DNA of 64,000 nt from an uncultured bacterium (GCA_963848965.1 CAWKFG010000004.1:160001-224000); one strand, 5' to 3'. Positions 6,993 through 54,494 are shown, counted from the stretch's first letter. Program-made: numbers and translations. Notes: generated by a model from the letters alone, not told the origin.

Positions 6993-8225
6993 TTAGTATC
7001 TATGTGCTCTTTTAGGCTTTTTGGAACCATCTTGAAGAGATGCTGTTCGTTCTCGTAACTGTAGTGCTTTAAAGGTAGCATATAAAGAGTGAGCGTCAAA
7101 AACAATAAGAATATGCGGATAGATGCCACTATATTGACTTTTGATGCCCGCTGCAATAAGAGGACTACAAGGAGCCCATAGTATTTTCTCTGTAACAAAA
7201 GGTGTATCTTCATTTGTAAATGTTGTTGCCCGTCCTAAGATAAAATTATCTAAATTTTTAAGACAGCTTACTTCAGATTGAACATTTCCTGCTTGAGCAT
7301 TCCAAATATCTATTTTACTAATACCACCACTTATAAGGTACTTGCCATCATATGACCATGAAATTTGCCCTACAATTCTTCCAAGATCACTACTTTGCCA
7401 GCGAACTATACAACGGTTACAATCATTATCGTACACTGCTATAGTTCCATCATTTAATGAAACCGCTAACTGGTTCTTAAGAGGGCACCATACAAGAGAG
7501 TAGAGTTCTGTTTGCTCATTATATTCACGCAGAAGAGAGCATTCAGCTCTTCCATTGCCAGACGCTAGACCGAAAATTTGTACGCCATGTGCAGTATTTG
7601 ATATTTCTCGCAAACCCACTGCAAGGTAATTTCCGAAAGGAGCCCATTGCAGTAACGATACATGCTTATCACAGTTTATAGATGCAACCTGAATACGAGT
7701 AGTAACATCCCATAGGGCAATCGTACTTTCGTTAGTATACGGATGAGCTACTCCACCAGTAAACTCTTTAGCAAGTACGGCTAAATAATTTCCGTCATAT
7801 GACCATGCAAGAAGAGCAATGCGCACAGAGCCTTCTGTCCTGGCTTTAAGCGAACGAGTACTGACATCCCAGACCTCAACAGTTCCATTACGCAATCCTA
7901 AAGCAAGGAGATTCTGTGGACCCCATGCCAAAGCTGTAATATGGCTTGAAGCGTCGAGAATAAAATGCTCTTTTGTATAAGTATTCCAGATTTTACAACT
8001 GTTTGAATTTGGACAAGAAGCTGCTAGATAAACCTCTTCCGGACCACGAGACCATGCAATCTCTTCTAAAGCATTTTCACTTGAATTCTTAAGATCTAAG
8101 ATAAGAGGATATTTATCGATTTCAGATTTTTCCATCCCCTTCATAGAAAAGATACATCCTAAGCCAACACAAAAAAGATATTTCTTAGATCTGGTAGTAA
8201 TCCAGTGATACATAGCTATCTCCAT
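6993..8225 (-). CDS. WD40-repeat protein, probably secreted
   Basis: Repeated LAW..G..LA.G...G.V.VWD units; hydrophobic N-terminus followed by GME. Confidence 0.8.
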   Translation of the reverse strand: MEIAMYHWITTRSKKYLFCVGLGCIFSMKGMEKSEIDKYPLILDLKNSSENALEEIAWSRGPEEVYLAASCPNSNSCKIWNTYTKEHFILDASSHITALAWGPQNLLALGLRNGTVEVWDVSTRSLKARTEGSVRIALLAWSYDGNYLAVLAKEFTGGVAHPYTNESTIALWDVTTRIQVASINCDKHVSLLQWAPFGNYLAVGLREISNTAHGVQIFGLASGNGRAECSLLREYNEQTELYSLVWCPLKNQLAVSLNDGTIAVYDNDCNRCIVRWQSSDLGRIVGQISWSYDGKYLISGGISKIDIWNAQAGNVQSEVSCLKNLDNFILGRATTFTNEDTPFVTEKILWAPCSPLIAAGIKSQYSGIYPHILIVFDAHSLYATFKALQLRERTASLQDGSKKPKRAHRY

Positions 8226-8371
8226 TTAAAGATTATTGTAAGCCAACTTTATGAAATTTCAGAGATACTTATTATCGCATAAAATCGACAACTCGTCAAT
8301 CAAAATTGACAAATATGCAAAATAAATCTTAAAAACAGAGAGGTAACTCTTGTATAAGGAGCTCTAGAAAG

Positions 8372-8896
8372 CTATTTTCTTGCTATAGCAGAATATTTGA
8401 TAGCGAATGCAAGCCGGCTAAAAAAGTCTTGAGCTCTTTGAAGGCGTACTAAAGCTTCTGGGTTTCTAGAGGCGCTTTGCTTTATAAGCTCTTTGATATC
8501 GTTTGTAAGAGCCTCCATAAGCTTTCTCACTTTCTCTGGATTCGTCTCTATAAGAGATGCCAAATAACCTATTTCTTTCCACTCATGCTCTTGAAAACGA
8601 GGAACCATCCATTGGAACTCTAGAGATCGTTGGTTAAGATCTTGCAGCCGTTCTATTGCCTCTGGAAGAAGCATAGGAGCATTCTCATTACCCCGCTCAA
8701 GATTTGCCTGAAGATCAATAATATATTCCACTTGATCCTGTAAATCTTCCTCTAGTCGCCTACGCTTTAGTTCACTATTATTACTAAACTCAGCAGATGC
8801 TGGTCTTTTACGTGGATTCGATGGATCTTGTTCCATCGCTTCTAAAAAAGCAGAGCTTCCTATAAGGCACCCTATAAATAAAATACTTTTTTTCAT
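8372..8896 (-). CDS. Hypothetical secreted protein with bipartite NLS-like motif
   Basis: MKK signal peptide then AMEQ; RKRPASAEFSNNSELKRRR. Confidence 0.7.
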   Translation of the reverse strand: MKKSILFIGCLIGSSAFLEAMEQDPSNPRKRPASAEFSNNSELKRRRLEEDLQDQVEYIIDLQANLERGNENAPMLLPEAIERLQDLNQRSLEFQWMVPRFQEHEWKEIGYLASLIETNPEKVRKLMEALTNDIKELIKQSASRNPEALVRLQRAQDFFSRLAFAIKYSAIARK

Positions 8897-9021
8897 TTCT
8901 TACCATTAATTTATATAATTATCATACTAGTAATAGTATAAACCATTTTTCCAAAAAGAACAGTCTAAAAGTAAAAGGCTACAATCAAGCAGCCTTTTAC
9001 TCAGTAGAAAGCATAGAGCTT

Positions 9022-9417
9022 TTAAACTCGTACGTTAAGTACTTCTGCTATCATTTGTAAATCTTGCAAATGCTGTGTCGCCATTGGTAACTGGCCTGCA
9101 CCTGCGGGCCCTTGGCCACGTAAAACAGCTATATTTGTGCGCGCTTGGTCTATTCGTTTCCTTATTACATCAGGATTGCTTTTAAGAATTTCTTCATATC
9201 TTTCTTCATCTCGCGGGCCAACTAGAGCTTTTGCTAGAGCTTCTGCTCTTTCCAGCTGACTCATTTTTCTTTGAAATGCAGATTCTGCTTCTTGCGCTTG
9301 ATGCTTAAGCATCTCTTGTTCAAGCTCTGTTGCGTACTGCTCAGCTTCTACATCAGTCATAGCATTTATTCTTTCCCCACAAGCTGCGAGAAGAAGAATA
9401 ACTAGTAATTTTTTCAT
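9022..9417 (-). CDS. Hypothetical secreted helical protein
   Basis: MKKLLVILLLAACG signal peptide (possible lipobox); AAGGAAGGG RBS. Confidence 0.65.
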   Translation of the reverse strand: MKKLLVILLLAACGERINAMTDVEAEQYATELEQEMLKHQAQEAESAFQRKMSQLERAEALAKALVGPRDEERYEEILKSNPDVIRKRIDQARTNIAVLRGQGPAGAGQLPMATQHLQDLQMIAEVLNVRV

Positions 9418-9543
9418 ATATACCCTTCCTTTACCTAGTATTTACATCTACTACACACTAGAATACTAAATATAGTTTCAATTAGTCAATAAAGCTGGGT
9501 ATAATTTACAAAACTAGATAAGTCTTTATTTTTAAAAAGTACG

Positions 9544-9565
9544 AGGGAAGGCATATGCCTTCCCT
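9544..9565 (-). terminator. Hairpin directly after the PhoH gene
   Basis: AGGGAAGGCA-TA-TGCCTTCCCT perfect inverted repeat. Confidence 0.55.
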
Positions 9566-10944: not shown

Positions 10945-11039
10945 AGTTATCCTTATTCAGTGTACTGTACTACTCATGTTGAGAAAGGTACCATACTGCA
11001 GGAAAAGACTCAATAAAATTAAAGAAAATTTGGTCTCTG

Positions 11040-12791
11040 TTAAGAAGTTCGTGATACAAATTGCTCTTGATACAATCTTCGAATTTCTGTAACTGTAGTT
11101 GCTTCTTCTGGTGTTTTATCTGGTCTATAACCAATAAAACGAGGAAATCGCAAAGCAAGTCCTGGTTTATCGTCTGTACGAGCTGCTGTATGTAAAGGCG
11201 ACTGAGAAATATTATCTGCTAAAATTTCTACCACTAAAGACGGCTGAACCCAAACATCCGGCACCAATGCAGGCGCACAAACAACATTCTTAGGCTGCTT
11301 AGGCACTATTAGAGCATCACAGTTTCTTTTAAGTTCACGCCACTGCTCATCCTTAAGACCTGTTCCTACTTTTGCAATCGTTTCAAAACGATCTTTTTCT
11401 TTATTATAGATACCTACAAGAAATGCTCCTATACCTAATGCAGCTCGCTTTCCTCGTCCTGCATAATAGCCAAGCACAACAGTATCTACTGTATCAGCAA
11501 GATGTCCTTCTTCTGCTTGCTTAAGCTTAATCCAATTAAAGTTTCGTTTACCTGCTTGATACGAAGCCTGTGGTCGCTTTGCTACAATACCCTCTAATCC
11601 TTGCGAAATTTCTTCGTTAAAATAATCATTAAGCTCTTTGGCAGTTGTACAAATACGCTCTTCAATAACCTCTATAGCTGAACTTAACGGACGATGGAAA
11701 AGCTTTTCTAACAAGTCACGTCTGGTTTCATGAGAAAGATCTAAAACACTTTTCCCGTTAAGATATAACACATCGAACAGAAAAAGCTTTAAAGGAAGCG
11801 ATTCAAGCACCTCTTCAATACCATGCTTACGCTTACGTTTTACTGTCTCCTGAAAAGGCAAAAATGTCTGAGTATTTTCATCATAGACAATTGCTTCTCC
11901 TTCCATAATAACCGTTTGGGCAGGAATATGCTCTAATGCCTCTACAAGATCAGGAAACATAAGTGACATATCTTGTAAATTACGGGAGTAGAACCATATA
12001 TGTGGCTTCTTATGCCGTCTATCAACGTGAATCTGTAATCTAAATCCATCAAGCTTCGGCTGTGCAACACACGGGCCTATACGCTTTATAACTTCTTGAG
12101 CACTTACTGCTCGTTCTGCTGCAGCTGGCCGTATGGGAGTCCCTATCGTCGGCTGTATCTCTGTTAACACATGAACACCATGCGCCTTGAGCTTATAAGC
12201 AATAAGACCTATATCTGCACGCACGTTATATGCTTCCTCTATAGTATCATGAAGAGATTTATCTCCTGTAATCATCCATGAAAGAGCATCAATTAACGTC
12301 ATATCAGAAAAGCCCATACGCAACTTTCCGGTAATACTACGAATAATGTATCCTGCTGAAAGTGCATCTACCTCTCTTAAAAGCGATGCAAGTAGTGCAG
12401 CCTTTTCTTCTTGTGAACCTGAACCGGAGATAGCCTGTAACTTTACTAAGCTATTATACACATCCTCTACTGAAAGACTATGATCTTTATATGGCCAATG
12501 ACTTTGAGCAACATAGAGCCCTATATCCCCTACTTTTTTTACCTCTTTTGTATATGTTTCAAGCGATGTATGCTGTAACGTAGCAAGCAGTTTAAGAATA
12601 CTTTTATCAGCGTAGTTAAACTGACTGCCTAAATAAGGAGCTCGTACAGTTCCAAGCGATAGATAACAAATAATTTGTGCTTCATGCGCCGTTGCTCTCT
12701 TAAAAAGATCAGCAAGAAGGCGCGTCATTGCAAGACGAGATGATTCTTGAGTTAAAGAAAGAAAAACTTCGGCTAATTCACGAAACGTCAT
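11040..12791 (-). CDS. ATP-dependent DNA ligase with N-terminal DNA-binding domain
   Basis: KLDGFR, MEGE, FDVLY, EGIVAK, WIKLK, LRFPRF motifs. Confidence 0.95.
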   Translation of the reverse strand: MTFRELAEVFLSLTQESSRLAMTRLLADLFKRATAHEAQIICYLSLGTVRAPYLGSQFNYADKSILKLLATLQHTSLETYTKEVKKVGDIGLYVAQSHWPYKDHSLSVEDVYNSLVKLQAISGSGSQEEKAALLASLLREVDALSAGYIIRSITGKLRMGFSDMTLIDALSWMITGDKSLHDTIEEAYNVRADIGLIAYKLKAHGVHVLTEIQPTIGTPIRPAAAERAVSAQEVIKRIGPCVAQPKLDGFRLQIHVDRRHKKPHIWFYSRNLQDMSLMFPDLVEALEHIPAQTVIMEGEAIVYDENTQTFLPFQETVKRKRKHGIEEVLESLPLKLFLFDVLYLNGKSVLDLSHETRRDLLEKLFHRPLSSAIEVIEERICTTAKELNDYFNEEISQGLEGIVAKRPQASYQAGKRNFNWIKLKQAEEGHLADTVDTVVLGYYAGRGKRAALGIGAFLVGIYNKEKDRFETIAKVGTGLKDEQWRELKRNCDALIVPKQPKNVVCAPALVPDVWVQPSLVVEILADNISQSPLHTAARTDDKPGLALRFPRFIGYRPDKTPEEATTVTEIRRLYQEQFVSRTS

Positions 12792-18100: not shown

Positions 18101-18103
18101 ACG

Positions 18104-23509: not shown

Positions 23510-25153
23510 TTAGCTAAGGTATGTGGTACAAAACGTCATTATTGCTTTTGCAAAATCTTGTGCAAAAGTAGGAATATTTCTTGGATCACGAAAATTCCAT
23601 CCAAATTCTAACTGAAGAGCGTCAATACCATTTTCTCTATGGCTTCCATAGTTACGTACGGTATATCCGCCGTTATATGATCCATGCTCTTTTTGACTTC
23701 TCTGATTATTAAGAGGAAACACTTTATGATCTTGCTCTGCTAAAAGTCCTAAAATGCTTTTTGGACCAGTAAATGATATTTCACCGCAACGATGTACTAA
23801 TGCATTAACGGTCTTTCTGTTTTGTGTACCTCTGTAAATAACATCATAAGCAAGCCCATGAGCATGAATATCAAGTAATAATGCTTTTGATCCATAACGT
23901 GCTTTTATAGCATCAATGAACTGCTTAATCTGCCCATGATATGCTTCATACACAGGTTCAGCTTTGCGATGTTCATAAGCTTCTCTTGGAGCTCTGTTAG
24001 CATCTATATATTCTCTGCCAAAACGAGCAGCTACAACGTAAGGCCGTACACCAAAAAGTCTAAAAAGCTCGTCACTTACAGCAAGAGTAAGCTCAAGTGT
24101 ATTACCATCTAAACAGTGCTCTCCATGTCGCCGCACAGGAACTCCAGGAATCTTTAAAGTGCCACCATGAGGAGCTGTAAGAATAAGTGGTATAGTACCT
24201 TCTTGTACTACCATAAAATCTCGCTGTTGTAACGCTGGCACATGAGGTGCTTCGTTTATACAATCTAATAAAAGAGCTTGTCGCTCTATTTGCGCCTTAT
24301 TCTCATCGTTTACAGCATTTTGCAATGCCTCACGTACAACTTTTGTAGAAGGCGACTGACCTATTTGAGCTATAATGCTAAGAGCTTCTGGACCTGCACA
24401 AATAGCTCTTTCAAGTACTGTTTGTGCTCTATCTGGCAACATTTGAACATATCCTTGAGTATTACGTAAAAGCTCCGGATCTGAAAGTAACGTACGTGCA
24501 ACATCTTTTTGGCTACTCAACGTAGCAGGAAATGATGCCCATATAACGGCACTAAATCTGTTCTTTTCTGCCCAGCTTGCAATTGATTGCGCAGTAACTG
24601 TTGGAATTCTCTGACGTACATTGTCTGTTGTACGTATTACCCATTGAGTAGTATCAGGAATAACTTCTTCATCAGCTTCTTTTGTACGTCCTGGTAGGAT
24701 CTTTTTTATGTAAAAAATGTTTGTTAAATCGTATCCACCATGTCCGTTACGCAATAAAACACCTTCTCTAGCAGCAAGATTATTACGTGCATTAGGAAGA
24801 AATGCAAATTCTGATACTGCATACCATACTCGTTTATCTTTACCACAGAGAGTATCTACTACAGCAGAGATCCTCTTACCAGCAGATTCTCTTGCCATAG
24901 CAACTGGTAAGGAAAGAGCCGTAGGCTGGAAACTACTTGCATAAAGCTGAGCACCTGTTCGTTCATTAATCGGTTGATGCACAAGACTCCCATACGAAAG
25001 AATGGCAATTTTACGCTTGTCCTGTACAGTATCTTCATCTTTATAACGATATCCATTGCTATCAACACGTTGCGATAGCGATTGTTCCATGGTAAAAGTA
25101 TAATGACTTACTACCAAAATAAGTACTATACTCCATAGTTTGCTTATATACAT
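23510..25153 (-). CDS. Secreted two-domain protein: GGCT/ChaC-like N-terminus plus N-formylglutamate amidohydrolase-like C-terminus
   Basis: IAILSYGSLV start; C-terminal LTAPHGG, IDANR, LLDIHAH, YNGGYTVRNYG, ALQLE. Confidence 0.7.
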   Translation of the reverse strand: MYISKLWSIVLILVVSHYTFTMEQSLSQRVDSNGYRYKDEDTVQDKRKIAILSYGSLVHQPINERTGAQLYASSFQPTALSLPVAMARESAGKRISAVVDTLCGKDKRVWYAVSEFAFLPNARNNLAAREGVLLRNGHGGYDLTNIFYIKKILPGRTKEADEEVIPDTTQWVIRTTDNVRQRIPTVTAQSIASWAEKNRFSAVIWASFPATLSSQKDVARTLLSDPELLRNTQGYVQMLPDRAQTVLERAICAGPEALSIIAQIGQSPSTKVVREALQNAVNDENKAQIERQALLLDCINEAPHVPALQQRDFMVVQEGTIPLILTAPHGGTLKIPGVPVRRHGEHCLDGNTLELTLAVSDELFRLFGVRPYVVAARFGREYIDANRAPREAYEHRKAEPVYEAYHGQIKQFIDAIKARYGSKALLLDIHAHGLAYDVIYRGTQNRKTVNALVHRCGEISFTGPKSILGLLAEQDHKVFPLNNQRSQKEHGSYNGGYTVRNYGSHRENGIDALQLEFGWNFRDPRNIPTFAQDFAKAIMTFCTTYLS

Positions 25154-25388: not shown

Positions 25389-26132
25389 ATGAATTATAAA
25401 CAATATGTGCTCATATCGTGTTTGTTATATACAGGACTAGTATATACAAGTGCTCTTTCTCAGAAGAACATCAAGGAAGTACCTCGACCTAACCGCGAGT
25501 GTTATTGGGCAGTTCCAAACAGGTTGCTTGCAGGTCAGTATCCTGGTGCTCATGATGAAAATTCTACTCGCAAAAAATTACGCAGTTACCTTGATGCAGG
25601 TATCACCTTTTTTCTTGATCTGACAGAACAGAGTGAAATAAGCCTCACCGGCGAGCGAAAGCCCTACGCTCTATTACTACAATTAGAAGCCAAAGAACGT
25701 AATATAAAAGTACACCATTGTCGTATGTCAATTCGCGACTTTGGTATACCAACAAAAGAGTTTATGACAAAAATTCTTGATGTTATAGATACTGCTTTAA
25801 ACGCAGGACATAAAGTATATGTACACTGTTGGGGTGGAATTGGGCGAACAGGAACTGTAGTTGGATGTTATTTTGTACGCAAAGGAGAATCTGGTGAGCA
25901 AGCACTTAAGCATCTAGCAACATTGTGGCATTCAGTAGGAAAAGCCAAAAAATTTCCTCTTTCACCAGAAATGGAGATCCAAAGACAATTTGTAGTTAGG
26001 TTCGGCATGCATTCTCCATTTACTCATACTACGTTATTCAACAAAGAGCATAACACTGAATCTTCTTTAGAGGCTGACTATAGCGAATCTTCATCTACAG
26101 ATTCAGAGGAAATAGCCGAGGATACTTTATGA
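25389..26132 (+). CDS. Dual-specificity/protein-tyrosine phosphatase with signal peptide
   Basis: VHCWGGIGRTG (CX5R), LAGQYPG, IRDFGIP, SPE...Q. Confidence 0.88.
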   Translation: MNYKQYVLISCLLYTGLVYTSALSQKNIKEVPRPNRECYWAVPNRLLAGQYPGAHDENSTRKKLRSYLDAGITFFLDLTEQSEISLTGERKPYALLLQLEAKERNIKVHHCRMSIRDFGIPTKEFMTKILDVIDTALNAGHKVYVHCWGGIGRTGTVVGCYFVRKGESGEQALKHLATLWHSVGKAKKFPLSPEMEIQRQFVVRFGMHSPFTHTTLFNKEHNTESSLEADYSESSSTDSEEIAEDTL

Positions 26133-27832: not shown

Positions 27833-28352
27833 AGGTGCGCCACATAGTTAAAAGTTCTTGAGGTACCGGAGTTTTTTGATCAATTCCTTTATTTGCAAGC
27901 TTATCTGCTATTTTGTTTTCTGCACGAGGAATATGGCATATGGTATAGAGCATCCCCATAAGTAACTCTTCTATATGCAGGTACAATTTTACTAAATCTT
28001 TATTTTTTACGCCATACATTCCTATAAGTTGTCGTACTAAAAGCTGAGAATCTGATTTAATAGTAAGCTTATCTGTATGACACATAAGACCTTTAAGCAG
28101 TAAAAGCCCTAAAAGCAATGCAAGGTACTCTGCCTGATTATTTGTTTTAGTACCTAAAAAAATACCCTTTTCTACTACCGGTATCCCATCCTTTAGAATA
28201 TAAATACCTGCTCCTGCGGGACCAGGATTATTTCTAGCTGCTCCATCTACATAAAGCTCCCATGATGAAGAATTGTATGGTAAATCAAAAATAGATGTTT
28301 GTCTCATGCTGGTGACCGTGGAAAATAAAGTAATCGGAAACAATCTTGGCAT
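27816..28352 (-). CDS. rnhA: Ribonuclease HI family protein (true start probably downstream)
   Basis: YVDGAARNNPGPAGAG, TNNQAEY, SDSQL, HIPRAENKIADKLAN. Confidence 0.9.
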   Translation of the reverse strand: MPRLFPITLFSTVTSMRQTSIFDLPYNSSSWELYVDGAARNNPGPAGAGIYILKDGIPVVEKGIFLGTKTNNQAEYLALLLGLLLLKGLMCHTDKLTIKSDSQLLVRQLIGMYGVKNKDLVKLYLHIEELLMGMLYTICHIPRAENKIADKLANKGIDQKTPVPQELLTMWRTYEQTL

Positions 28353-29014
28353 TTTATCAGTTTATCTTGCTTAGCTTCAATTATCTTATGAGGACTTATA
28401 AGATAAAAACAAGCAGAACAACTACTTTTAATAATTGGCACTACAGGATTAGGAATACGAGCAAGCATGGCCGTATACTCTTCTAAAAGTTCCTGCGATA
28501 CCAGACTCACAACTGCTTGGCGTTCATTGTGCAAGCTTTCAATCCTCTGTTCTACATAGGTCTTACGCTTTTCTAGCTCATCAAGCTCATGTTGCATGTG
28601 CTGTACTTTTAAAGGAATCTGCTGCTCTAATGTAAGAAGTTTTTCCTGTTCTGACTCAAGCTGCTGCCACAGAGAAAGATAGGGCTCTTCATAGCCTTTT
28701 CGCTTTTTCTCAAGCGCTTGCACTTCTCCTTCTAAAGAGAAATACTCTTTAGGAGTAGCTGCATGAGCAAGCTTCTGCCTTTTTTCTTTTTCTTGGGTGT
28801 CCAAAGTACGGAGCTCTAAATCGAGTGCATGTACCTTTTTACGTACATCAGCTACAGCTAGCTGAGCTTGAGAAAGTTCTTTTTTAGTAGCTTCAATAGC
28901 AGTTAATAAAGAGATATATTCCTCTTGAATGCTTACAAGCTCGTGTTTAAGCCGCATAAGAAGAGCATCAAGATCGACAAGTTCGAGAAATTGATCAAAT
29001 GAATTACGCTCCAT
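28304..29014 (-). CDS. Coiled-coil protein with C4 zinc ribbon (CT398/DUF164-like)
   Basis: Long coiled coil then CSAC...CQDC.RLLY; adjacent to RNase HI. Confidence 0.85.
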   Translation of the reverse strand: MERNSFDQFLELVDLDALLMRLKHELVSIQEEYISLLTAIEATKKELSQAQLAVADVRKKVHALDLELRTLDTQEKEKRQKLAHAATPKEYFSLEGEVQALEKKRKGYEEPYLSLWQQLESEQEKLLTLEQQIPLKVQHMQHELDELEKRKTYVEQRIESLHNERQAVVSLVSQELLEEYTAMLARIPNPVVPIIKSSCSACFYLISPHKIIEAKQDKLIKCQDCFRLLYFPRSPA

Positions 29015-41142: not shown

Positions 41143-42642
41143 ATGTATCTTAAAAAACTCTCACTTCTTATGAGCATTATGTTTTTACCATCATACGTAT
41201 TCTCTCAATTTACTCCTCATGCTGATCGTTGGGATTGGAAAGCTATAAATACCAAAGACATTACTTTTGGAAAGCATTTTTTATGGGGTGCAGCTATTTG
41301 TGAATACCAGAACTCTGGTGCATTTCACTGCGATAAAAATAATTGGGCACACTGGGAAAATACCACATTCGCCAACGGTAAGCCGCACACTGTCAACGGA
41401 CAGAAATCTGGCCCTTCTTGTAATCATTGGGATCTCTATAGAAAAGATATTGAGCTTATGAAGCAACTTGGACTCAATTCTTTTAGATTCTCTGTTGAAT
41501 GGAGCAAAATAGAACCTCAGGAAGGCACTTTTGATGAACCTGCCATACAGCATTATGTAGACTTTTGTAATGCGTTGCTAGAAGCAGAGATTAAGCCTTT
41601 AATAACTCTCCATCACTTTACTCATCCACAGTGGTTTGAAGATAAAGGCGCTTTTGAACATGAAGAAAATATTACCTACTTTGTTCGATTTGCAAAAAGA
41701 GTATTTGAAGCGCTTGGATCTAAAGTACACTTATGGTGTACTCTTAATGAGCCTACAATCTATGCATTCCAGGGCTATGTTCGTGGTGTTTTTCCTCCTG
41801 GTAAAAAAAGCTTTGCTGAACTCTTTCCTAATCAACTTGCAGTACATGTACTAAGAAACCTTATGATAGCTCATACACAAGTTTATAAAACTCTTAAAGC
41901 TATGCCTCATGGTGATAGGGCTCAAATAGGCTTAGTACATCAGTATTTGCGCTTTATGCCCTATACTAGTTGGCATCTTCTTGAAAAGCTTCCTGGCTTT
42001 GCACTCAACCATTTTCTTAATGATGTAGTACTCAACTTCTGTTCTACAGGAACATTTAAATACAACTTTTATGTACCATGTATTGCAAATATTCATGCTG
42101 AATACCAAGCTCCAGAAGGTCCACTACTAGACTTTATTGGGCTTAATTACTACTCTCGTGTGCTTGTTCATTTTAAATGGCTTATATTGCCTATGTCCTC
42201 TTGCTATCCACACGAAATTATGACCGATATGCCCTATGCGATGTACGCTCAAGGTCTCTATGAGGCTATTAAAGATGTAGCTCGCCTACGAGTACCTATT
42301 TATATTACTGAAAACGGAATTGCCGACGAAAAAGATACAAAAAGAAAGCAGTTTCTTAAGCAATATATATATGCACTAAGTACTGCTATTAGAGACGGCT
42401 ACGATGTGCGAGGCTTCTACTACTGGAGTCTCACAGACAACTTTGAATGGGACATGGGATATACAATGCGATTCGGTCTTTATGGAGTTAACTTCCAAAC
42501 GCAAGAACGAACATTAAGAAAAGGCTCTCAATACTATGCTAAAGTTATTCGTAAAGCACGAGAAGGACAGCTATCACGACCATTTGCTCTTGTTTCACCA
42601 CCACAAAAAGAATCTCAGCCTACACATGAAAAGCAAGCATAA
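41143..42642 (+). CDS. Glycoside hydrolase family 1 (beta-glucosidase-like) with signal peptide
   Basis: FLWGAA, FRFSVEWSKIEP, TLNEP, ITENG, WSLTDNFEW. Confidence 0.94.
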   Translation: MYLKKLSLLMSIMFLPSYVFSQFTPHADRWDWKAINTKDITFGKHFLWGAAICEYQNSGAFHCDKNNWAHWENTTFANGKPHTVNGQKSGPSCNHWDLYRKDIELMKQLGLNSFRFSVEWSKIEPQEGTFDEPAIQHYVDFCNALLEAEIKPLITLHHFTHPQWFEDKGAFEHEENITYFVRFAKRVFEALGSKVHLWCTLNEPTIYAFQGYVRGVFPPGKKSFAELFPNQLAVHVLRNLMIAHTQVYKTLKAMPHGDRAQIGLVHQYLRFMPYTSWHLLEKLPGFALNHFLNDVVLNFCSTGTFKYNFYVPCIANIHAEYQAPEGPLLDFIGLNYYSRVLVHFKWLILPMSSCYPHEIMTDMPYAMYAQGLYEAIKDVARLRVPIYITENGIADEKDTKRKQFLKQYIYALSTAIRDGYDVRGFYYWSLTDNFEWDMGYTMRFGLYGVNFQTQERTLRKGSQYYAKVIRKAREGQLSRPFALVSPPQKESQPTHEKQA

Positions 42643-43478: not shown

Positions 43479-44093
43479 TTATCTATCTGTTTTAGGCTCA
43501 GGAGCACAAACACAGCGAGAATCTTCTAACTCTTTTACCTCTTCCATAGTTTGAGGAACAAGATTGTCTTGTGTCTTCTTCACCCAACTGTCATAAAAAG
43601 ATTGTAGTTGCTTATAGAGCATTCCTATTCTTTCTAATTCTTGTGTATTTTGAGTTCGTAGGTCCACAGATGGCAATATAATCTTAGTAAAACACTCATC
43701 AACTTTGAATAATTGTAGAGTATCCAATATACCCCTTTGAAAAGCATTCCAACATTTAAATAGTGTTTGCCCATCAGCTAAATCATCTACAAAAGTATTA
43801 TAAAGTATACCTTCTGCATAAAATCGTAGACTCAGCTCTTTCTCCCATAGATCATGCCAAGCTCGTGAATCTTTAACCAATAGAGAAAGCTTAGCTAGTA
43901 CATCACAATAGTTAGTGCCAAAGCGTTGTCCTTTTTTGTAATATTCTTCTGCACTAAGAGGACAATCCTCTTTATAATTTTCTGCAACATACATGCGCAT
44001 CTTTTGCTTTTCTTTTTCCATACCATATGAGAAAGCAGGCACTAGTATAAGACTAAGAGCACATAATTTTTTTGCTAAATACATATTTTTCAT
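43479..44093 (-). CDS. Hypothetical secreted protein
   Basis: Signal peptide ending SYG then MEKEK. Confidence 0.65.
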   Translation of the reverse strand: MKNMYLAKKLCALSLILVPAFSYGMEKEKQKMRMYVAENYKEDCPLSAEEYYKKGQRFGTNYCDVLAKLSLLVKDSRAWHDLWEKELSLRFYAEGILYNTFVDDLADGQTLFKCWNAFQRGILDTLQLFKVDECFTKIILPSVDLRTQNTQELERIGMLYKQLQSFYDSWVKKTQDNLVPQTMEEVKELEDSRCVCAPEPKTDR

Positions 44094-44874: not shown

Positions 44875-45285
44875 ATGTCAATCAAATACTATTTTATTGC
44901 CGTTTTTCTTCTTGGTACCTCATTAGCTCAAGCAATGGATGTTACACAACCGCAAGGTCAAAGTACTTTAACAGAAGCTCAAAAAGCACTTTTTATGTTC
45001 CGCGCTCGTGGCTTAATGTTTGTAAAAGCTGCTCAAGAAAATAAAACTGCCGTAGTTAATGCTCTTTTACCAACCATTGGTACCCTTATTAATACGAAGG
45101 ATCAAGCTGGCAAAAGTGCTCTTCATCATGCAGTAGGCAATCAAAATAGAGAAATGGTACAAGCTTTAGTAAGAGCTCAAGCTGATATTACTCTCGCAGA
45201 TAATGCAGGGCAAACACCTTTAGACCTTGCAAGAGAAACAAATAACACAGAAATTATAGCTCTTTTATCTCCAAAGCAAAAATAA
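44875..45285 (+). CDS. Secreted ankyrin-repeat protein
   Basis: AQA-MD signal junction; GKSALHHAVGNQNREMVQALVRAQADI, GQTPLDLA. Confidence 0.88.
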   Translation: MSIKYYFIAVFLLGTSLAQAMDVTQPQGQSTLTEAQKALFMFRARGLMFVKAAQENKTAVVNALLPTIGTLINTKDQAGKSALHHAVGNQNREMVQALVRAQADITLADNAGQTPLDLARETNNTEIIALLSPKQK

Positions 45286-45522: not shown

Positions 45523-45873
45523 ATGAATTATAAGACTTTTTTAGGGATACTTCTTGTATTTCCTTTTACCACTTTTGGCATGGAGCCAGATCCAGCATCT
45601 GTTGATAGTCCTCTAAATGCAGCTGGAGAAACTCCCTTAATGCGAGCTATAACCTATGGAGATAAAGATAAAGTACAAAAGCTTATTAAAGCAGGTGCTA
45701 ATATTAATTTCGTAACTAAATATGGTATGACTCCTCATGCCCTTGCTACTATAGGCTCTATGTTTAGTCCCGAAGCACAAGCTATATTAAAGCTTCTTGA
45801 AGAACATGGGGCACACGGAGGCCCTATGCCCCTTAAAATAACAGTCGGATCAAAAACAAAAGAATCAAAATAA
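45523..45873 (+). CDS. Secreted ankyrin-repeat protein
   Basis: TFG-ME junction; GETPLMRAITYGDKDKVQKLIKAGANIN. Confidence 0.88.
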   Translation: MNYKTFLGILLVFPFTTFGMEPDPASVDSPLNAAGETPLMRAITYGDKDKVQKLIKAGANINFVTKYGMTPHALATIGSMFSPEAQAILKLLEEHGAHGGPMPLKITVGSKTKESK

Positions 45874-45998: not shown

Positions 45999-47180
45999 TT
46001 ATACGTTGGTTAATTCTTCTTTTAGATCCTGCGGAAGTACTTTCTCTGCTTTTGTACTAAAAGTCTGATTATTTTTGCGTATATAGGCTAGAGTAATTTC
46101 CTTAAGTGTTGCCACTTGTATCTTCTTTTTATCTTTAAGTCTGGTCAGCCATAAATACTTAGGCTCTGGACCACCTCTGGTATCAACGGGTTCTCCTTTA
46201 CCTAATACCTCGAGCCATTTTCCTCCTTGGCTAATAGCCTTAAGAGCAACTAAGGGAAGATTTGTCGATATGCTCAAGAGCTTAGCCTGATCACCATCAT
46301 CAATTGAATCATCATTTACCATGAGATTAAGAATTGAACGTATATAGGGAGTATTTTCAATACAAAGTTTGCTTAGTTGAGGTGCCATAACCGCTTTTTC
46401 TGGCACTTTTACAAGTGGGTTATTATCTAGATCTACATATTGTAATGTAGGATATTCCGAAGGCATACTGTCAGAAATATCAGTAAGCCGATTATTACTA
46501 AGCGTAAGTGAGGTAAGTCTTGTATTATACTTTAAAGCATCAGCAGAAAGTCCTTTGAGATAGTTATCACTCACGTCTAATATCTCTAATAGAGGACAAT
46601 AATAAAAAATAGTCGCAGGAAGCTCTTGAAGGTAATTATGATTCAATCGAAGAGATTTAAGTTTTTTACACAATACAAAAAGATTTCCAGAAAGCTTTGT
46701 AAGCATATTACTTGAAATCCATAAGTATTCTAATATGCTCTTGTCTGAAAAAGTATCTTCAGCAAGTAAATTTATCTTATTAGAACCAAGATCAAGGCCA
46801 GATAATCGTGAGAAACATTCCAAATCTTTCTTTTTTAAAGATGTAAGAGCATTTTCTGAGAGCCTTACGGAATCAATAGTGCTTACATTAGAATGAGAAG
46901 CTGATATAAATTCTTTTAAATGCTCAAGCGAGGCTATATTTAAACCCTGAAGATAAAGACTTTTCTTATCATAACTGAAAAGTTGACCATTACTGAGTCT
47001 ATGTGCAAATTCCACCTTCGTTCTTAACTTCAAAAGATCAAGGACCCCAACAGTTGCTTTTTCTTTTTTAGAATGTACAATCTGCTGGCCATGCCGAGCC
47101 GATTCCTTCTTTTCTTGCTCCATACCCTGCATATACATAAAAAGACTTATACTTGCTAAAGTTAAAAATAGTTTTTTCAT
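45999..47180 (-). CDS. Secreted leucine-rich-repeat protein with C-terminal SOCS-box-like tail
   Basis: 24-aa LxxLxLxxNxL repeats; start moved to MKKLFLTL; tail VATLKEITLAYIRKN...VLPQDLKEEL. Confidence 0.85.
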   Translation of the reverse strand: MKKLFLTLASISLFMYMQGMEQEKKESARHGQQIVHSKKEKATVGVLDLLKLRTKVEFAHRLSNGQLFSYDKKSLYLQGLNIASLEHLKEFISASHSNVSTIDSVRLSENALTSLKKKDLECFSRLSGLDLGSNKINLLAEDTFSDKSILEYLWISSNMLTKLSGNLFVLCKKLKSLRLNHNYLQELPATIFYYCPLLEILDVSDNYLKGLSADALKYNTRLTSLTLSNNRLTDISDSMPSEYPTLQYVDLDNNPLVKVPEKAVMAPQLSKLCIENTPYIRSILNLMVNDDSIDDGDQAKLLSISTNLPLVALKAISQGGKWLEVLGKGEPVDTRGGPEPKYLWLTRLKDKKKIQVATLKEITLAYIRKNNQTFSTKAEKVLPQDLKEELTNV

Positions 47181-47196
47181 AGTGAGCCCATTCAAT

Positions 47197-47225
47197 AAAA
47201 AAGCGGTACTAGAAAGTACCGCTTT
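47197..47225 (-). terminator. Rho-independent terminator
   Basis: AAGCGGTACT-AGAA-AGTACCGCTT with A run on + strand. Confidence 0.7.
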
Positions 47226-47232
47226 AAATGTG

Positions 47233-47976
47233 TTAGAGACAAAACGCAAATGCGTATGACGGTTGCTTAAATCTCTTATATTCTGCTTCTTTTTCAAGAG
47301 CATTGTGCTGCACTAAAAATTCTTTTGCAAAATCATTTTTCATGTTGCGTGCCTCATTATAAGCAAAATAAAGGTAGAGATCTCGCGGTGTACATTCAGG
47401 CCGATCTTCTGAAGCAATACCAGGTGATGAACTTGCTACCTCTTCTAACTCAAGTGACAATGCGGTATGTTTAAAAAGCTCAACGATTTTTAAATGCTTT
47501 TTCAACTGAATACGCGTATCATCTCTATCCTGTACCAACTCTAATTCTTCAACTTTAGAAGAAATGAGGGTTCGGATAAGTTCCATAACAGCTCTTTTTT
47601 CAGAAAGTTTTAAATTATTATTTTTAAAAAGAACAAGAAAAGCCAATTCAACAAGATCTTTTACAGGATGACTGTAAATTATGCTGTGAGTTAGATCAAG
47701 GTTAAGATAAGTCACTAGTCGCTTATTAACTTCTTGTTGCAGCTCTTGTGGCAAGAGTGAAAGGAAAGTCGCTTTATACATAGCATCTTGTGGTAGTTGT
47801 TTTAAGCGTTTAAGCGCGTTATTATATACTTCTTCAGAATTTACCGGATTACTTCGCTTTACCGGTGGAAGCAGGGACCTCTTAGGTTGCTCCTCATGAT
47901 TCATTGCACGTATAGTTGAGATGCTCAATAATAGCACGCTTACGAGTGCCGTTACTTTATATGATGTCATATACAA
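47233..47976 (-). CDS. Hypothetical secreted protein with F-box-like segment
   Basis: IRA-MN signal junction; FLSLLPQELQQEVNKRL. Confidence 0.6.
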   Translation of the reverse strand: MYMTSYKVTALVSVLLLSISTIRAMNHEEQPKRSLLPPVKRSNPVNSEEVYNNALKRLKQLPQDAMYKATFLSLLPQELQQEVNKRLVTYLNLDLTHSIIYSHPVKDLVELAFLVLFKNNNLKLSEKRAVMELIRTLISSKVEELELVQDRDDTRIQLKKHLKIVELFKHTALSLELEEVASSSPGIASEDRPECTPRDLYLYFAYNEARNMKNDFAKEFLVQHNALEKEAEYKRFKQPSYAFAFCL

Positions 47977-49021: not shown

Positions 49022-49057
49022 TGGAACTCCATAAGCGCAAAAACTGCTTTTCCATAC

Positions 49058-49637: not shown

Positions 49638-49886
49638 ATCTTTATAATTTTATAAGACGCGGAACATAAGTATACTATTTGATGCACTTTTTAAAACAAA
49701 GAAATTATAGCGTCCTTTTCTCCTTGAGAGGGATACCTAAGCTCATCTTTGGCATCTTATATGCCAGTTAAAGATAAAAGATCCTATAGAAAGCCAAAGG
49801 TTTTTAATATAAACTTGAAATTATAATTAATAATTTTGTATACTGACCATAATAATATAAATATACGACTATTACAAGGAGATAGT

Positions 49887-50207
49887 ATGGCCTGCAAAGT
49901 TTTTTATGCACTACTTATTGTATTACCTTTTACAATTTTCGGTATGGAACCAGCAGCTGTTGATCGTCCCTTAGATAAAGCGGGAAATACTCTTTTAATA
50001 AAAGCTATAGCTAGTGGTAACATAGACGAAGTAGAACGACTTATAAAACTTGGTGCCAATGTTAATCTGCGTACCGCATATGGTATAACCCCTTTCAGCC
50101 TTGCCTTTATGCTAGCCACAGTTGATCCGGATAAAGGAGAACCTATAGTAGATACACTCAGAAAATATGGCGCAACAGCTGCTAGAACCTCCAAAATAAG
50201 AGATTAA
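49887..50207 (+). CDS. Secreted ankyrin-repeat protein, paralog of 45523..45873
   Basis: LPFTIFG-MEP; GNTLLIKAIASGNIDEVERLIKLGANVN; AAGGAG RBS before ATG 49887. Confidence 0.85.
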   Translation: MACKVFYALLIVLPFTIFGMEPAAVDRPLDKAGNTLLIKAIASGNIDEVERLIKLGANVNLRTAYGITPFSLAFMLATVDPDKGEPIVDTLRKYGATAARTSKIRD

Positions 50208-50296: not shown

Positions 50297-50548
50297 ATGG
50301 TTAAAAAAACACTTGTTCTTATTGCTCTTGTAACAGCTACTGTATATTCTCATTCACTTTACTCGAGTCTTTGTGAATGTACCCTTAGTACCCAACCAAT
50401 TACTGATACTACAACTTCTTCTACAGGAGTACGAACATTTCATTTTCAATATACCAATATATCTAATGTAGATGATTGCAGAACACGATGCCAGGAAAAA
50501 AAGGCTGAATATAACATGCCTTATATGACTGGTCATTTTACAAAATAA
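50297..50548 (+). CDS. Small secreted cysteine-containing protein
   Basis: AAGGAG RBS, signal peptide, CEC and CRTRC. Confidence 0.65.
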   Translation: MVKKTLVLIALVTATVYSHSLYSSLCECTLSTQPITDTTTSSTGVRTFHFQYTNISNVDDCRTRCQEKKAEYNMPYMTGHFTK

Positions 50549-50690
50549 TGATGCCAATTATCTAAACCATTATAGTAGCTGATACGTATTTTCTTGTAAA
50601 ATTCACCGTGATTTTATAAAATTATAGCATGGAATGCATTACAGACTTTTTTATAATATTTATGGATCGCATTCCATGAATAGAAGTTTT

Positions 50691-51923
50691 ATGTTTGAAA
50701 AAATACGTGAACTTAGCCAATATTTTATAAAACTAAAATATGAGCACTATCAAAGGTATTTTATAAGAAGTACCCAACTCAAGCACAGATTTACAATTAT
50801 TTTAGGTGAACGTGGAATTGGAAAAACCACCACATTAATCCAATATCTCATGAAAACTGCCAATCATAATCCTTTGAGTGATGAAATTCTCTATGTTCAA
50901 GCCGACCATTTTTTAATTGGCAACACTTCTTTATATGAAATAGCTGAAACTTTCTGGAAGTTAGGTGGTAAACAAATTGCATTTGATGAGATTCATAAAT
51001 ACCCCCATTGGTCTTTAGAGCTAAAAAGTATTTACGACACATTTACCGATTTAAAAATAGTTGCTTCTGGTAGCTCTGCTTTAGAAATTACCAAAGGGAG
51101 CCATGATTTAGCAAGAAGAGCTGTAGTATACCATATGTTTGGATTATCGTTGAGAGAATTCATTGAATTAAAGTATACTATACAACTACCGACCTTAGAA
51201 CTTACCACTATTATTAGCGATCATACTAAGTTAGCCTTCGCTCTTATTGAAGAACTGGCACATAACAACTTAAAGATTTTAAAGCTTTTCAAGGAATACA
51301 TAGAATATGGTTATTATCCTTATTTCCAACAGTTTGAATCGATAGCCGAATTTAAGATTACCGTTGAACAAAATATCCACACAACGTTAGAATCTGATTT
51401 AGTAGCAATATACCCATATTTAACTGGAAATAGTATAAAAAAAATAAAACAATTAGTATCTTACCTTGCAGAATCAGTACCATTTACACCTAATTGGCAA
51501 ACTATAAAAAAAATTACAGAGATTGGGGATGATAGAACCATAAAAACATATTTTAAGTACCTAGAGGATGCATATATAATTTATGCTCTAGGGAGCTCAA
51601 CAAAAAAAATAAAAAAGCTAGAAGATCCTGAGAAAATTTTTCTTGCAAACACAAACCAACTATTTGCATTCGCATTTTTACAACCAGAAATAGGCAACTT
51701 ACGAGAAACCTTTTTCCTTAGTAACTTACGCCCTATCCATGATATCCAAGCAGCAAAAGATGTCGATTTTTTAGTTGATAGAAAATTCTTATTCGAGATT
51801 GGAGGAAAAAATAAAGATACAAAGCAGATCAGAGATAAAGATAGCGCTTACCTTGTTTTAAATAACATTGAGCATGGAACAGATAGACGTATCCCTCTTT
51901 GGTTATTTGGCTTTTTATATTAA
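50691..51923 (+). CDS. AAA+ ATPase (AAA_14) with DUF4143-type C-terminus, intact
   Basis: GERGIGKTT, FDEIH, SGSS, YGYYP, GNLRETFF, FEIGGK; start inferred. Confidence 0.88.
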   Translation: MFEKIRELSQYFIKLKYEHYQRYFIRSTQLKHRFTIILGERGIGKTTTLIQYLMKTANHNPLSDEILYVQADHFLIGNTSLYEIAETFWKLGGKQIAFDEIHKYPHWSLELKSIYDTFTDLKIVASGSSALEITKGSHDLARRAVVYHMFGLSLREFIELKYTIQLPTLELTTIISDHTKLAFALIEELAHNNLKILKLFKEYIEYGYYPYFQQFESIAEFKITVEQNIHTTLESDLVAIYPYLTGNSIKKIKQLVSYLAESVPFTPNWQTIKKITEIGDDRTIKTYFKYLEDAYIIYALGSSTKKIKKLEDPEKIFLANTNQLFAFAFLQPEIGNLRETFFLSNLRPIHDIQAAKDVDFLVDRKFLFEIGGKNKDTKQIRDKDSAYLVLNNIEHGTDRRIPLWLFGFLY

Positions 51924-51975
51924 AAGATAGTTCATAAATGAGTAGAATTTTAAACATATCCTCCAAGGATTCGTT

Positions 51976-52284
51976 ATGAAACGCTTTATAGATAAATATC
52001 TGTTAGAATGGAAAAATAGTACCCTAAGAATGCCATTACTTATACGGGGTGCTCGACAGGTTGGAAAAACTCATGCTGCAAGAAATCTAGGTAAATCATT
52101 TGATGACTTTGTTGAAATCAATTTTGAACTCAACCCTCTCTCTACCATTTTTGAAAAAGATCTAGAACCTGAAAGGATTATACGCGATCTTGCCGTACTG
52201 CTTGGCCGCCCTCTTATTCAGGGCTTGCTCTTTCTCTTGAGTTTTATTCTAAAACTGACAACACTGTTGTCAGAAATTAGTTAG
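51976..52284 (+). pseudogene. Truncated AAA+ ATPase (N-terminus only)
   Basis: MKRFIDKYLLEWK...RGARQVGKT, similarity lost before Walker B. Confidence 0.8.
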
Positions 52285-52440
52285 GGATCATCCTGCTCAA
52301 GGTTAAATTCCGAGCTCAATGGTTTTTTATCTAATTTGATATTATTAAATCATAAGGACGAACTAGATAGCTTAAGCTCAAGATAATCCTTTACCTAGTT
52401 TCTTGTATTTTTTTGCTCAATTTTATATACTTAGTATAGA

Positions 52441-52530
52441 TTTTGACCGCGAAAGATCAAAATCATGCCCAAGTTTTAGCCCTAAATGGTTAAAATAAGG
52501 TCCAAATTTTAGCCATGTAAGGTAAAAATG
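52441..52530. promoter_or_regulatory. Three 33-bp-phased imperfect palindromes upstream of an AAA ATPase gene
   Basis: TTTTRRCC-N7-G[GA]T[CTA]AAAA units starting at 52441, 52474 and 52507. Confidence 0.7.
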
Positions 52531-53842
52531 AGACGTTTAATTGATTCTTATCTTATAGAATGGAAAAATAGCTCAATCCGTAAATCTCTTATTATGGAGG
52601 GGAGCAAGACAAGTAGGAAAAACCTTTACTGTGAGAGAATTCGGCAAAACTTTTGAAAATTTTGTTGAGGTCAATCTTGAAAGTTCAGAAAAAGTAAGAA
52701 ATATTTTTGAGAAGGACTTACATCCTGATCGTATTTTAAGGGACTTAAGTTTACTAGTACAGCAAGATATTATACCTGGCAAAACACTTCTATTCCTTGA
52801 TGAAATACAAGCATCTCCTAGAGCATTTCTTTCTTTAAGATATTTTTATGAAGAGTTACCGAATCTTCATGTAATTGCTGCTGGGTCATTATTAGACTTT
52901 ACGATTCAACAAATTGGTATACCCGTTGGGAGAGTCAGTTCTCTGTATATATATCCAATGTCTTTCTATGAATTTTTACTGGCTATGAATGCAGATTTAG
53001 CAGCTGAAGCAATTTTAATTCATAACCCCAAAGATAAAATAGGAGAACCAATACACACTAAATTATTAGAATATTTAGCTGAATACCTAGCCGTAGGAGG
53101 AATGCCTGCAGCAATTAAATGTTGGAAAGATCAAAAAAATCCAAGAGAATGTTTTCAAATTCATCAATCTCTTATTGACGCTTATAAACAAGATTTTGAT
53201 AAATATGCAAAAGACTTTCAAATTAAATATCTTAAACTCTTATTTGAAAGAGCACTCTTAAAAATAGGAAAAAAATTTAAATATAGCTCACTTGGAGACT
53301 ATCGAAAAAGAGAATTAGAGCCTTGCCTAGATCTATTAGTTACAGCAGGCATAATGCATAAAATTTATAGAACAGATGGCAATGAAATTCCACTTGGAGT
53401 AGAATTCGGTTTAGATGATTTTAAAGTAATTTTTGTCGATATTGCACTCACTCAAGCTTTATTAAATATTAACTTAGCAGACTGGCTTTTGAATCCATTA
53501 CAAGATTTTATAAATAAAGGAGAAATTATTGAAGCATTTATCGGTCAAGAATTAATAGCTTATTCTGATCCTTATCAAAAAGCTCAGCTCTATTATTGGC
53601 GTAAAAATGAACCTTCTAGTCAAGCTGAAGTTGACTATCTTATACAAAAAAATAATTATGTAATTCCAACAGAAGTTAAAAGTGGAGCTACAGCTTTACT
53701 TAAAAGCTTAAAAATATTTTTAGAAAATAGGCCTAAAAGTCCCTATGGCATAAGATTTTCTATTAATGACTACTCTATACATCAGAAGGTTTATTCTTAC
53801 CCATTATATGCAGTTTATGGATTTTTACGATCAAAAGTTTGA
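52528..53842 (+). pseudogene. AAA+/DUF4143 ATPase with a +1 frameshift near 52596
   Basis: ATG 52528 MRRLIDSYLIEWK; removing one base in ATGGAGGGG restores RGARQVGKT in frame with 52631..53842 (FLDEIQ, GGMP, EVDYL, EVKSG). Confidence 0.85.
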
Positions 53843-54173
53843 AGGAATCTAAGTTGAATAGCATTACGAAATTCATCATAAACTTCATAACCTATTTCTC
53901 TTCATAGCAGCAAGAATTGAATTACATTGCCTAAAGCACATCTTCTAGTAAGATTCTAAGGTTAAATATCAAGCTCCCTCAAGGTTAAATTCCGGGCTTA
54001 ACATATTTGATCTAAAGTGGGCCGAAGCCTGTGCACTCCTAAGGAGATTCGAACTTCTATTCTTTCTCCTAAAAAAATAACTAGAGAACTTACTTTATGT
54101 CTTTTTACTTTAATTTTTTAAACAATTATTATTATTGAGAGAATTATAATAAAAATTATAATAAAGGTGCTAT

Positions 54174-54494
54174 ATGTATCTAGTACCCATTTTATTATCA
54201 ATTTTCTTTTCTTTATCACTCTACGGTATAGAAAGAGAAGAGGCTGATCAAGTACAGCAAGTTAAACAAAAACCGCTAATACCATCATTGAATGATCTTA
54301 TATGGAGGCTTCATATTATGCGGCAACTACTAGGAATACCTATGACACTAGAAGAAATCGTAGAGCAACTACCTCGAGTAAGGATGTCAAAACTTTACTT
54401 TAAGATCTTAGATTTTTTAGAAGATCACGAGCTACGCGTAGGAATTCCATCCACAAAGAAGGAAATAGATAAAATGGCTCCTGAAAAGGGATAA
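54174..54494 (+). CDS. Small hypothetical secreted protein
   Basis: Signal peptide; IPSLNDLIW segment. Confidence 0.55.
   Translation: MYLVPILLSIFFSLSLYGIEREEADQVQQVKQKPLIPSLNDLIWRLHIMRQLLGIPMTLEEIVEQLPRVRMSKLYFKILDFLEDHELRVGIPSTKKEIDKMAPEKG

Follow-up and report, generated by a model that had tools for sequence, protein, structure and literature searches.

In the Bacteroidetes, substrates of signal peptidase I follow a Q-rule, in which Gln occupies +1, the first position after the cut, and is cyclised to pyroglutamate (PMC5837995, PMC10653852; for these two papers and for PMC6561590, PMC4378268, PMC4776705 and PMC11735805, portions of the text are the source here and below). Here, we describe a different +1 residue, Met, behind the signal peptides of many exported proteins encoded in a 64,000-nucleotide stretch of DNA from an uncultured bacterium (the window, G000:C4:160001-224000) and throughout the genome from which it comes (G000; 1.73 Mb, 37% GC, five contigs). 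We take G000 to be a member of the Dependentiae, obligate parasites of protists; this placement does not come from a phylogeny, and the traits that match the literature on the phylum are leaders on a very large share of open reading frames (ORFs), very many ankyrin proteins and secretin genes. As in the Bacteroidetes, a lineage-specific +1 residue is laid on the universal Sec pathway, giving a new N-terminus thought to matter for stability. The two rules differ in that the residue here is Met, not Gln, and is found on about one third of leader-bearing ORFs, chosen by class, whereas the Q-rule takes in most exported proteins; the Met rule is also patchy within its phylum and comes without an identified modifying enzyme. 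The Q-rule is the nearest published concept, and no published account of a Met rule was found in the literature searched: the portions of PMC6561590, PMC4378268, PMC4776705 and PMC5837995 used here contain no description of Met as the residue after the cut, and a term search of the portion of PMC5837995 gave no mention of methionine, TM6 or Dependentiae.

The leaders themselves resemble those of classical Sec and signal peptidase I substrates, with a basic n-region, a hydrophobic core, a small residue at -1, a small or aliphatic one at -3 and a length of about 20. Met at +1 is rare in classical signal-peptide sets. In the PEXEL motifs of Plasmodium, cleavage in the secretory pathway exposes an N-terminus that has Glu, Gln or Asp at position 2 and marks the protein for delivery to the host cell; these motifs differ in belonging to a eukaryotic parasite with another protease and its own acetyltransferase, and in lying downstream of the signal peptide. 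Anthrax edema factor is a Sec-secreted toxin subunit with a mature Met-Asn end, and its activity in the host cell depends on the N-terminal residue via the N-end rule (PMC3755998). It shares with the proteins described here Sec secretion and a mature Met followed by an amide residue, a likeness that speaks for a host-like N-terminus, but it is a single Gram-positive protein with its own translocation pore and no genome-wide rule. In the Dependentiae, signal peptides have been reported on 44% of coding sequences and 78% of ankyrin proteins (PMC6561590) and on 79 of 126 ankyrin proteins (PMC4378268), and type II secretion is the sole system reported (PMC4378268, PMC4776705). G000 is like this published secretome (PMC6561590, PMC4378268) in that its ankyrin proteins and others of eukaryote-like type bear Sec leaders, and no exit other than type II secretion is known.

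Methionine after Sec-type leaders across the genome

We called ORFs of at least 70 residues by a longest-ORF, non-overlap rule (n=1516). Signal peptides and cleavage sites were called by a heuristic, not by SignalP or another trained predictor, and exact counts therefore vary with the heuristic. The strict rule asks for an eight-residue core with a mean hydropathy of at least 2.2, followed within 15 residues by Ala, Gly, Ser, Cys or Thr and then Met. It yields 302 ORFs (the Met set), 231 of which have Glu, Gln, Lys, Asp, Asn, Arg or His next (the core Met set). A further 253 ORFs, with a leader and a -3/-1 site but without Met, make up the non-Met set.

An earlier note on the window, made from its sequence, had proposed that Met follows signal peptides more often than chance allows and falls at +1 of signal peptidase I sites, and the genome bears out both. 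Within 15 residues past an N-terminal core, the pattern of a small residue, Met and one of [EQKDNRH] occurs in 231 of 801 ORFs (28.8%), against 15 of 1392 internal hydrophobic cores taken as a control (1.1%; odds ratio 37, Fisher p 5e-91, with paralogues counted although they are not independent). Met follows 29-38% of the N-terminal cores in G000. In a looser test on 818 ORFs with an uncharged hydrophobic N-terminus, the uncharged residue that directly precedes the first charge was Met in 182, over a background of 1.9%. The Met-first pattern is thus confirmed across the whole genome, beyond the window.

The positions around the Met have the character of signal peptidase I sites. Among 266 ORFs with a core and Met followed by Glu, Gln, Asp, Asn or Lys, -1 is Ala, Gly or Ser in 204 and Ala, Gly, Ser, Cys or Thr in 238, with no condition imposed on that position, and -3 is small or aliphatic (Leu, Ile, Ser, Thr, Val, Ala or Cys) in 239. 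The consensus reads S-L-[YFQ]-[AGS]/M-E-[KQP]-[ED], where the slash marks the predicted cut, as it does below. The median leader is 20 residues long (5th to 95th percentile 18-34, counted from the longest-ORF start), and the 182 leaders that were inspected have a Sec-like basic n-region and uncharged hydrophobic h-region. By these criteria the sites appear to be genuine Sec signal peptides, which the peptidase would cut just before the Met. When clustered by mature sequence, the core Met set falls into 87 clusters, of which 72 are singletons and eleven are pairs; the largest, with 114 members, is made up of ankyrin proteins, and three others have 13, 6 and 4 members. Joint clustering with the non-Met proteins gives 76 Met-only clusters, 11 mixed ones and 188 without Met.

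In the window, the earlier note had listed eleven exported proteins with such a site. On translation, ten of them hold up as canonical Sec-type leaders followed by Met (in one case by Ile), and the eleventh, at 9022, is lipoprotein-like. As its leader contains a lipobox-like LLAAC followed by charged residues, a cut before Cys is likelier than the cited INA/MTD, and the protein is probably a lipoprotein outside the Met rule. A lipobox, which has an invariant Cys at +1, is ruled out for the Met sites, where +1 is Met; among the cited ORFs, a lipobox-like LLAAC is found only in the one at 9022. The note had also named three exported proteins without the Met. Two of these, SpoIID and GH1, indeed have leaders that end before other residues, and the third, a lipase, was not located. 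By Pfam, the Met proteins of the window comprise WD40, three ankyrin, leucine-rich-repeat and FGase-like proteins and ORFans. The proteins concerned are as follows.

6993..8225, minus strand: WD40 beta-propeller protein (translation and Pfam WD40 families) with a hydrophobic leader, IFS/MKG/MEK; two cuts are possible, with Met at +1 for either
8372..8896, minus strand: 174-residue protein with no family above the Pfam cut-off; 20-residue signal peptide, MKK...LEA/MEQ
23510..25153, minus strand: 547-residue protein with a C-terminal FGase-like domain; 21-residue signal peptide, ...TFT/MEQ
43479..44093, minus strand: 204-residue ORFan; 24-residue signal peptide, ...SYG/MEK
44875..45285, plus strand: ankyrin-repeat protein; 20-residue signal peptide, ...AQA/MDV
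45523..45873, plus strand: ankyrin-repeat protein, paralogue of the gene at 49887; 19-residue signal peptide, ...TFG/MEP
45999..47180, minus strand: leucine-rich-repeat protein with an MKK start at 47180, which is internal to the longest open frame (45999-47303); signal peptide ...MQG/MEQ, the leader from 47180 reading MKKLFLTLASISLFMYMQG/MEQ
47233..47976, minus strand: 247-residue ORFan; signal peptide ...IRA/MNH
49887..50207, plus strand: ankyrin-repeat protein with an ATG at 49887, which is internal to the longest open frame (49836-50207); signal peptide ...IFG/MEP, the leader from 49887 reading MACKVFYALLIVLPFTIFG/MEP
54174..54494, plus strand: 106-residue ORFan with the Ile variant ...LYG/IER (translation); Ile is a single base change from Met
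9022..9417, minus strand: putative lipoprotein cited as INA/MTD; lipobox-like LLAAC in the leader, then charged residues
26603..27832, minus strand: SpoIID/LytB-domain protein (NCBIfam), a contrast case; signal peptide followed by Val, IFA/VPQ
41143..42642, plus strand: GH1 beta-glucosidase (NCBIfam), a contrast case; signal peptide followed by Gln, VFS/QFT

Proteins that carry the Met, and constraint on it

The Met mark is above all a feature of proteins with eukaryote-like domains, and exported proteins that belong to the envelope or serve housekeeping lack it, a division that the earlier note had suggested looking for. Pfam tallies were restricted to proteins in fetched loci (115 of the 231 core Met and 111 of the 253 non-Met proteins). 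They place ankyrin repeats in 52 of 115 Met proteins against 7 of 111 non-Met proteins (Fisher p 5e-12), C2H2 zinc fingers in 12 of the 115 and MYND in 3. By a genome-wide regular expression, 100 of 132 ankyrin proteins belong to the Met set (100 of 302 Met, 11 of 253 non-Met and 21 of 961 other ORFs), and several of the 21 unclassified ones show by eye a leader followed by Met that the rule missed. The same approach finds C2H2 fingers in 13 Met, no non-Met and one other ORF (13 of 14 in the Met set). Fifty-six Met proteins match neither expression; six of them lie in the window and were scanned separately, and the other 50 include WD40, leucine-rich-repeat, RING, ubiquitin C-terminal hydrolase (UCH), TPR, J-domain, AAA and MutS domain V proteins, with no Pfam match at 1e-8 for 32 of the 50. 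On the non-Met side, 35 of the 111 leader ORFs resembled membrane anchors or false starts and were removed by eye, and the remaining 76 were scanned one by one. They include peptidases (C11, S41 and trypsin-like), metallophosphoesterase, DsbD, thioredoxin, outer-membrane efflux, beta-lactamase-fold and PEBP proteins, and six ankyrin proteins. The mark is strongly, not exclusively, tied to eukaryote-like proteins.

The residues that follow the Met are also biased. NatB substrates are proteins that keep their Met and have Asp, Glu, Asn or Gln at position 2 (PMC11735805). In the Met set, residue 2 is one of these four in 192 of 302 proteins (64%), against a 20% background, which fits, at the level of sequence, the host-like N-terminus that had been proposed. 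Small residues at position 2, by contrast, are found in 13% against a background of 37%, and hydrophobic ones in 10% against 29%. A small residue 2 would permit removal of the Met. Glu is the commonest choice, followed less often by Gln, Lys, Asp and Asn, and the next 25 residues after the Met are rich in Glu, Lys, Gln, Ser and Pro. Within 40 residues of the mature N-terminus, 30 of 231 Met and 13 of 253 non-Met proteins have a nuclear-signal-like K[KR]x[KR]; it is found in 7 of 17 members of the MKR subclass, where basic stretches of this kind often stand directly after the Met.

If the Met were a second, in-frame start, as the earlier note had allowed, it might be preceded by initiation signals of its own. 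A Shine-Dalgarno (SD)-like motif lies 5-18 nt 5' of the first start in 59% of 210 Met ORFs and 60% of other leader ORFs, with a G-rich peak at -10 to -7, and lies before 1% of internal Met codons. Promoters for a leaderless start at the internal Met were sought as -10-like hexamers, which show no enrichment (7 of 210 vs 16 of 567 controls). The true N-terminus is thus that of the leader, and nothing in the sequence supports a second isoform.

Several measures bear on whether the Met is under selection. The codons for Glu after the Met are GAA and GAG in the ratio 81:42, compared to 19489:9347 genome-wide; as this choice equals that of the genome, the constraint is on the protein, and a motif at the nucleotide level was rejected. 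Glu follows the Met in 59% of cases, whereas among 194 leaderless ORFs with SD support it stands second in just 6%, so that a fossil start codon fails to predict Met-Glu. We also compared homologues of at most 60% identity whose N-termini align with each other. The Met persists in 540 of the 925 pairs (which are not independent of each other), while flanking positions are 20-36% identical; no other N-terminal position is as well conserved among these diverged proteins. A promoter-plus-leader cassette spread by recombination was considered and rejected, since 5' DNA is common to just 39 of 26565 gene pairs, 28 of them paralogues.

We also noted leader-bearing genes on both sides of the rule. 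Eukaryote-type C2H2 arrays lie behind signal peptides genome-wide (e.g. in loci L012 and L013). Large leader proteins in which MutS domain V is the only domain are encoded at L014:5112-7967, L022:136-3171, L011:6093-8150 and L024:2343-5396, two with Met and two without. Near the start of the window stand two tandem exported J-domain (DnaJ, C-terminal) proteins without Met, at 557-1486 (plus strand, ...IGA/DI) and 1575-2234 (plus strand, ...ITA/DI). DSP-PTPase phosphatases that are effector-like and have a signal peptide, with Lys or Gln after the cut, are found at 25389-26132 of the window (plus strand), L024:16822-17451 and L024:17778-18389.

Three further genes of the window lie apart from these subjects. 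One, at 59107-59700 (minus strand), encodes a homologue of the 16S rRNA (adenine1408-N1) methyltransferases of NpmA/KamB type (138.6 bits vs a cut-off of 470, not an equivalog). Another, at 11040-12791 (minus strand), adjoins pgsA and secD and encodes an ATP-dependent DNA ligase of archaeal/eukaryotic type (dnl1 superfamily, 407 bits). The third, at 28304-29014 (minus strand), encodes a zinc-ribbon/coiled-coil protein that weakly resembles CdsZ (54 bits vs a cut-off of 275); an origin of the genome in the Chlamydiae, which this match might suggest, was rejected.

Relatives and export machinery

The survey of relatives covered ten genomes at 200 kb each and an eleventh, G021, at 100 kb; the 71 sampled genomes of the phylum all belong to one order. 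For reference, 33 and 21 core cases per 200 kb were counted in G000 itself. By family, the relatives gave these counts.

G018, family f1 (that of G000): 20 core cases per 200 kb
G003, family f1: 18 core cases per 200 kb
G002, family f1: 13 core cases per 200 kb
G010, family f1: 8 core cases per 200 kb
G027, family f10: 18 core cases per 200 kb
G034, family f14: 17 core cases per 200 kb
G050, family f14: 7 core cases per 200 kb
G043, family f14: 6 core cases per 200 kb
G061, family f5: 7 core cases per 200 kb
G029, family f12: 1 core case per 200 kb
G021, family f4: 1 core case in 100 kb

The Met rule recurs in G018, G002, G003, G027 and G034 and scarcely occurs in G029 and G021. It is neither phylum-wide nor general, as 253 leader-bearing ORFs of G000, and its envelope enzymes, do without Met.

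G000 has one signal peptidase I gene. An extra signal peptidase dedicated to Met substrates was rejected, as there is likewise one gene in the Met-rule genome G003 and in the low-Met genomes G029 and G061, and two in G034. Three tandem genes with secretin domains lie at G000:C4:767163-774663 (L145), with open frames of 1153, 818 and 796 residues. With Sec leaders and secretin genes both present, the Met proteins are candidate type II substrates, the system being read from its secretins. Secretin copy number was rejected as a correlate: there are three in G000 and G003, and two in Met-rule G034 as well as in low-Met G029 and G061. Four of the six GNAT acetyltransferases of G000 have signal-peptide-like leaders (L141:307-843, minus strand; L142:242-937, plus; L143:230-1057, plus; L038:8916-9521, plus), and all four fall below named-family cut-offs, being RimI/RimJ/RimL-like at best. 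An exported Acetyltransf_3 GNAT was rejected as a candidate N-terminal acetyltransferase, since the query found nothing in five of five high-Met relatives and matched in two of five low-Met ones.

What a Met-first end may do

The Met-first rule is apparently an unpublished, lineage-specific mark of host-directed, eukaryote-like proteins. Our leading reading of it, to which we give a probability of roughly 0.38, is that it provides a host-like, stable N-terminus. In this model, the upstream start would be translated, the protein exported by Sec, and the single signal peptidase I would cut directly before the conserved Met, so that the exported protein would begin Met-Glu or, less often, Met-Gln, Met-Lys, Met-Asp or Met-Asn. 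Release via the type II secretion system of the phylum would then bring the effector into the host cytoplasm with an N-terminus resembling an unprocessed eukaryotic translation product. The Met would be retained because residue 2 is large and polar, with no hydrophobic residue after the Met, and such an end may escape host N-degron recognition and N-terminal trimming. The rule would be selected at the level of the protein and would be specific to host-directed effectors of some Dependentiae lineages.

A number of points weigh against a host-like N-terminus. Enrichment reaches +3 (Lys, Gln, Pro or Arg) and +4 (Glu or Asp in 43%), beyond what N-degrons or NatB need. Ala, Ser, Thr and Gly at +1 are equally stabilising and are commoner signal-peptidase products, so N-degron avoidance alone fails to explain Met. 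An acidic early mature region favours Sec export generally. Some effector-like proteins of the non-Met set would expose destabilising ends, among them WD40 proteins (Asp, Glu or Gln after GG), dual-specificity phosphatases (IA/K) and an IBR protein. Ile, which is destabilising in eukaryotes, is the commonest ankyrin variant at +1 (4 of the 11 non-Met ankyrin proteins found by regular expression). In G061, the leaders of ankyrin proteins end before residues other than Met, and the Met rule is therefore a lineage trait, not an export requirement; as some effector-like families also lack the Met, it is neither universal nor needed for export. The cleavage sites are heuristic predictions. NatB acts co-translationally and is tethered to the ribosome (PMC11735805), so acetylation of an imported protein is doubtful.

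Nearly as likely as a host-like N-terminus, and likewise tentative, is an outer-membrane sorting tag: Met-Glu-(Lys/Gln/Pro)-(Glu/Asp) would be read in a second step by the type II system or another outer-membrane route, which would set released proteins apart from those of the periplasm and envelope. The proposed tag is found on effector-like proteins and is missing from peptidases, DsbD, thioredoxin, efflux, beta-lactamase-fold, SpoIID and GH1 proteins; the conserved stretch, from -3 to +4, is like a recognition motif, and the patchy spread over families would suit machinery that co-evolves with it. Against this, we know of no linear type II signal in any bacterium, and no machinery correlate has emerged so far, Met-rule G034 having two secretins just as low-Met G029 and G061 do. 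Residue 2 differs between lineages, and effector-like WD40, phosphatase and IBR proteins go untagged. That no secretion system but type II has been reported in the Dependentiae (PMC4378268, PMC4776705) and that secretin genes are present, three each in G000 and G003, again favours a tag. The narrower proposal, that the Met-Glu end is the linear signal by which the type II system picks, out of hundreds of unrelated periplasmic intermediates, those to expel into the host, strikes us as slightly more doubtful than a tag in general.

The remaining explanations we hold to be improbable. The Met might be a historical relic with little or no function, the old start codon of cytoplasmic or acquired genes that were extended 5' by a signal peptide. 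The many eukaryote-type domains could have been acquired as complete ORFs, and AT-rich upstream DNA would readily encode hydrophobic leaders, but the conservation of the Met in diverged homologues, its recurrence in 87 unrelated clusters and the excess of Glu behind it over leaderless ORFs all argue otherwise, and -3 to -1 suits a peptidase site, not a decayed ribosome-binding site. We give about as little credence to a processing or protection rule inside the bacterium, akin to the Q-rule, in which a +1 Met would suit the peptidase of the lineage or would be modified or shielded against periplasmic aminopeptidases. To our knowledge, no acetyl-CoA is expected in the periplasm. Only about one third of leader-bearing ORFs follow such a rule, envelope proteins would be cut by the same single peptidase without Met, and the exported Acetyltransf_3 GNAT turned up with its query in low-Met and not in high-Met relatives; the idea does have a precedent in a phylum-specific +1 rule (PMC5837995, PMC10653852), and several G000 GNATs carry signal-peptide-like leaders. 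Least probable of all are dual isoforms, in which the internal ATG would serve as a second start and give a cytoplasmic copy beside the exported one. The candidate second start is ATG in every case and lies in frame, and bacteria can initiate translation at a 5' terminus or independently of an SD motif, but the scarcity of SD-like motifs at the internal Met and the control-like frequency of -10-like hexamers speak against it, and eukaryote-like repeat proteins would have no evident role inside the bacterium.

If real, the Met-first rule offers a one-residue mark that separates host-directed effectors from envelope proteins. Such a mark would be useful in this phylum of protist parasites, which is large and has hardly been brought into culture; up to 44% of its genes have signal peptides, and most of its effectors are ORFans. 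The rule matters for annotation too, as the in-frame ATG stands right where the leader ends, and a gene model that started there would conceal the signal peptide. How type II substrates are chosen is a long-standing problem, which the rule would make testable, and if the Met-Glu end is indeed read for sorting, it would be the first sequence-defined type II secretion signal. More broadly, the Met rule would test whether eukaryotic N-terminal rules shape exported bacterial proteins.

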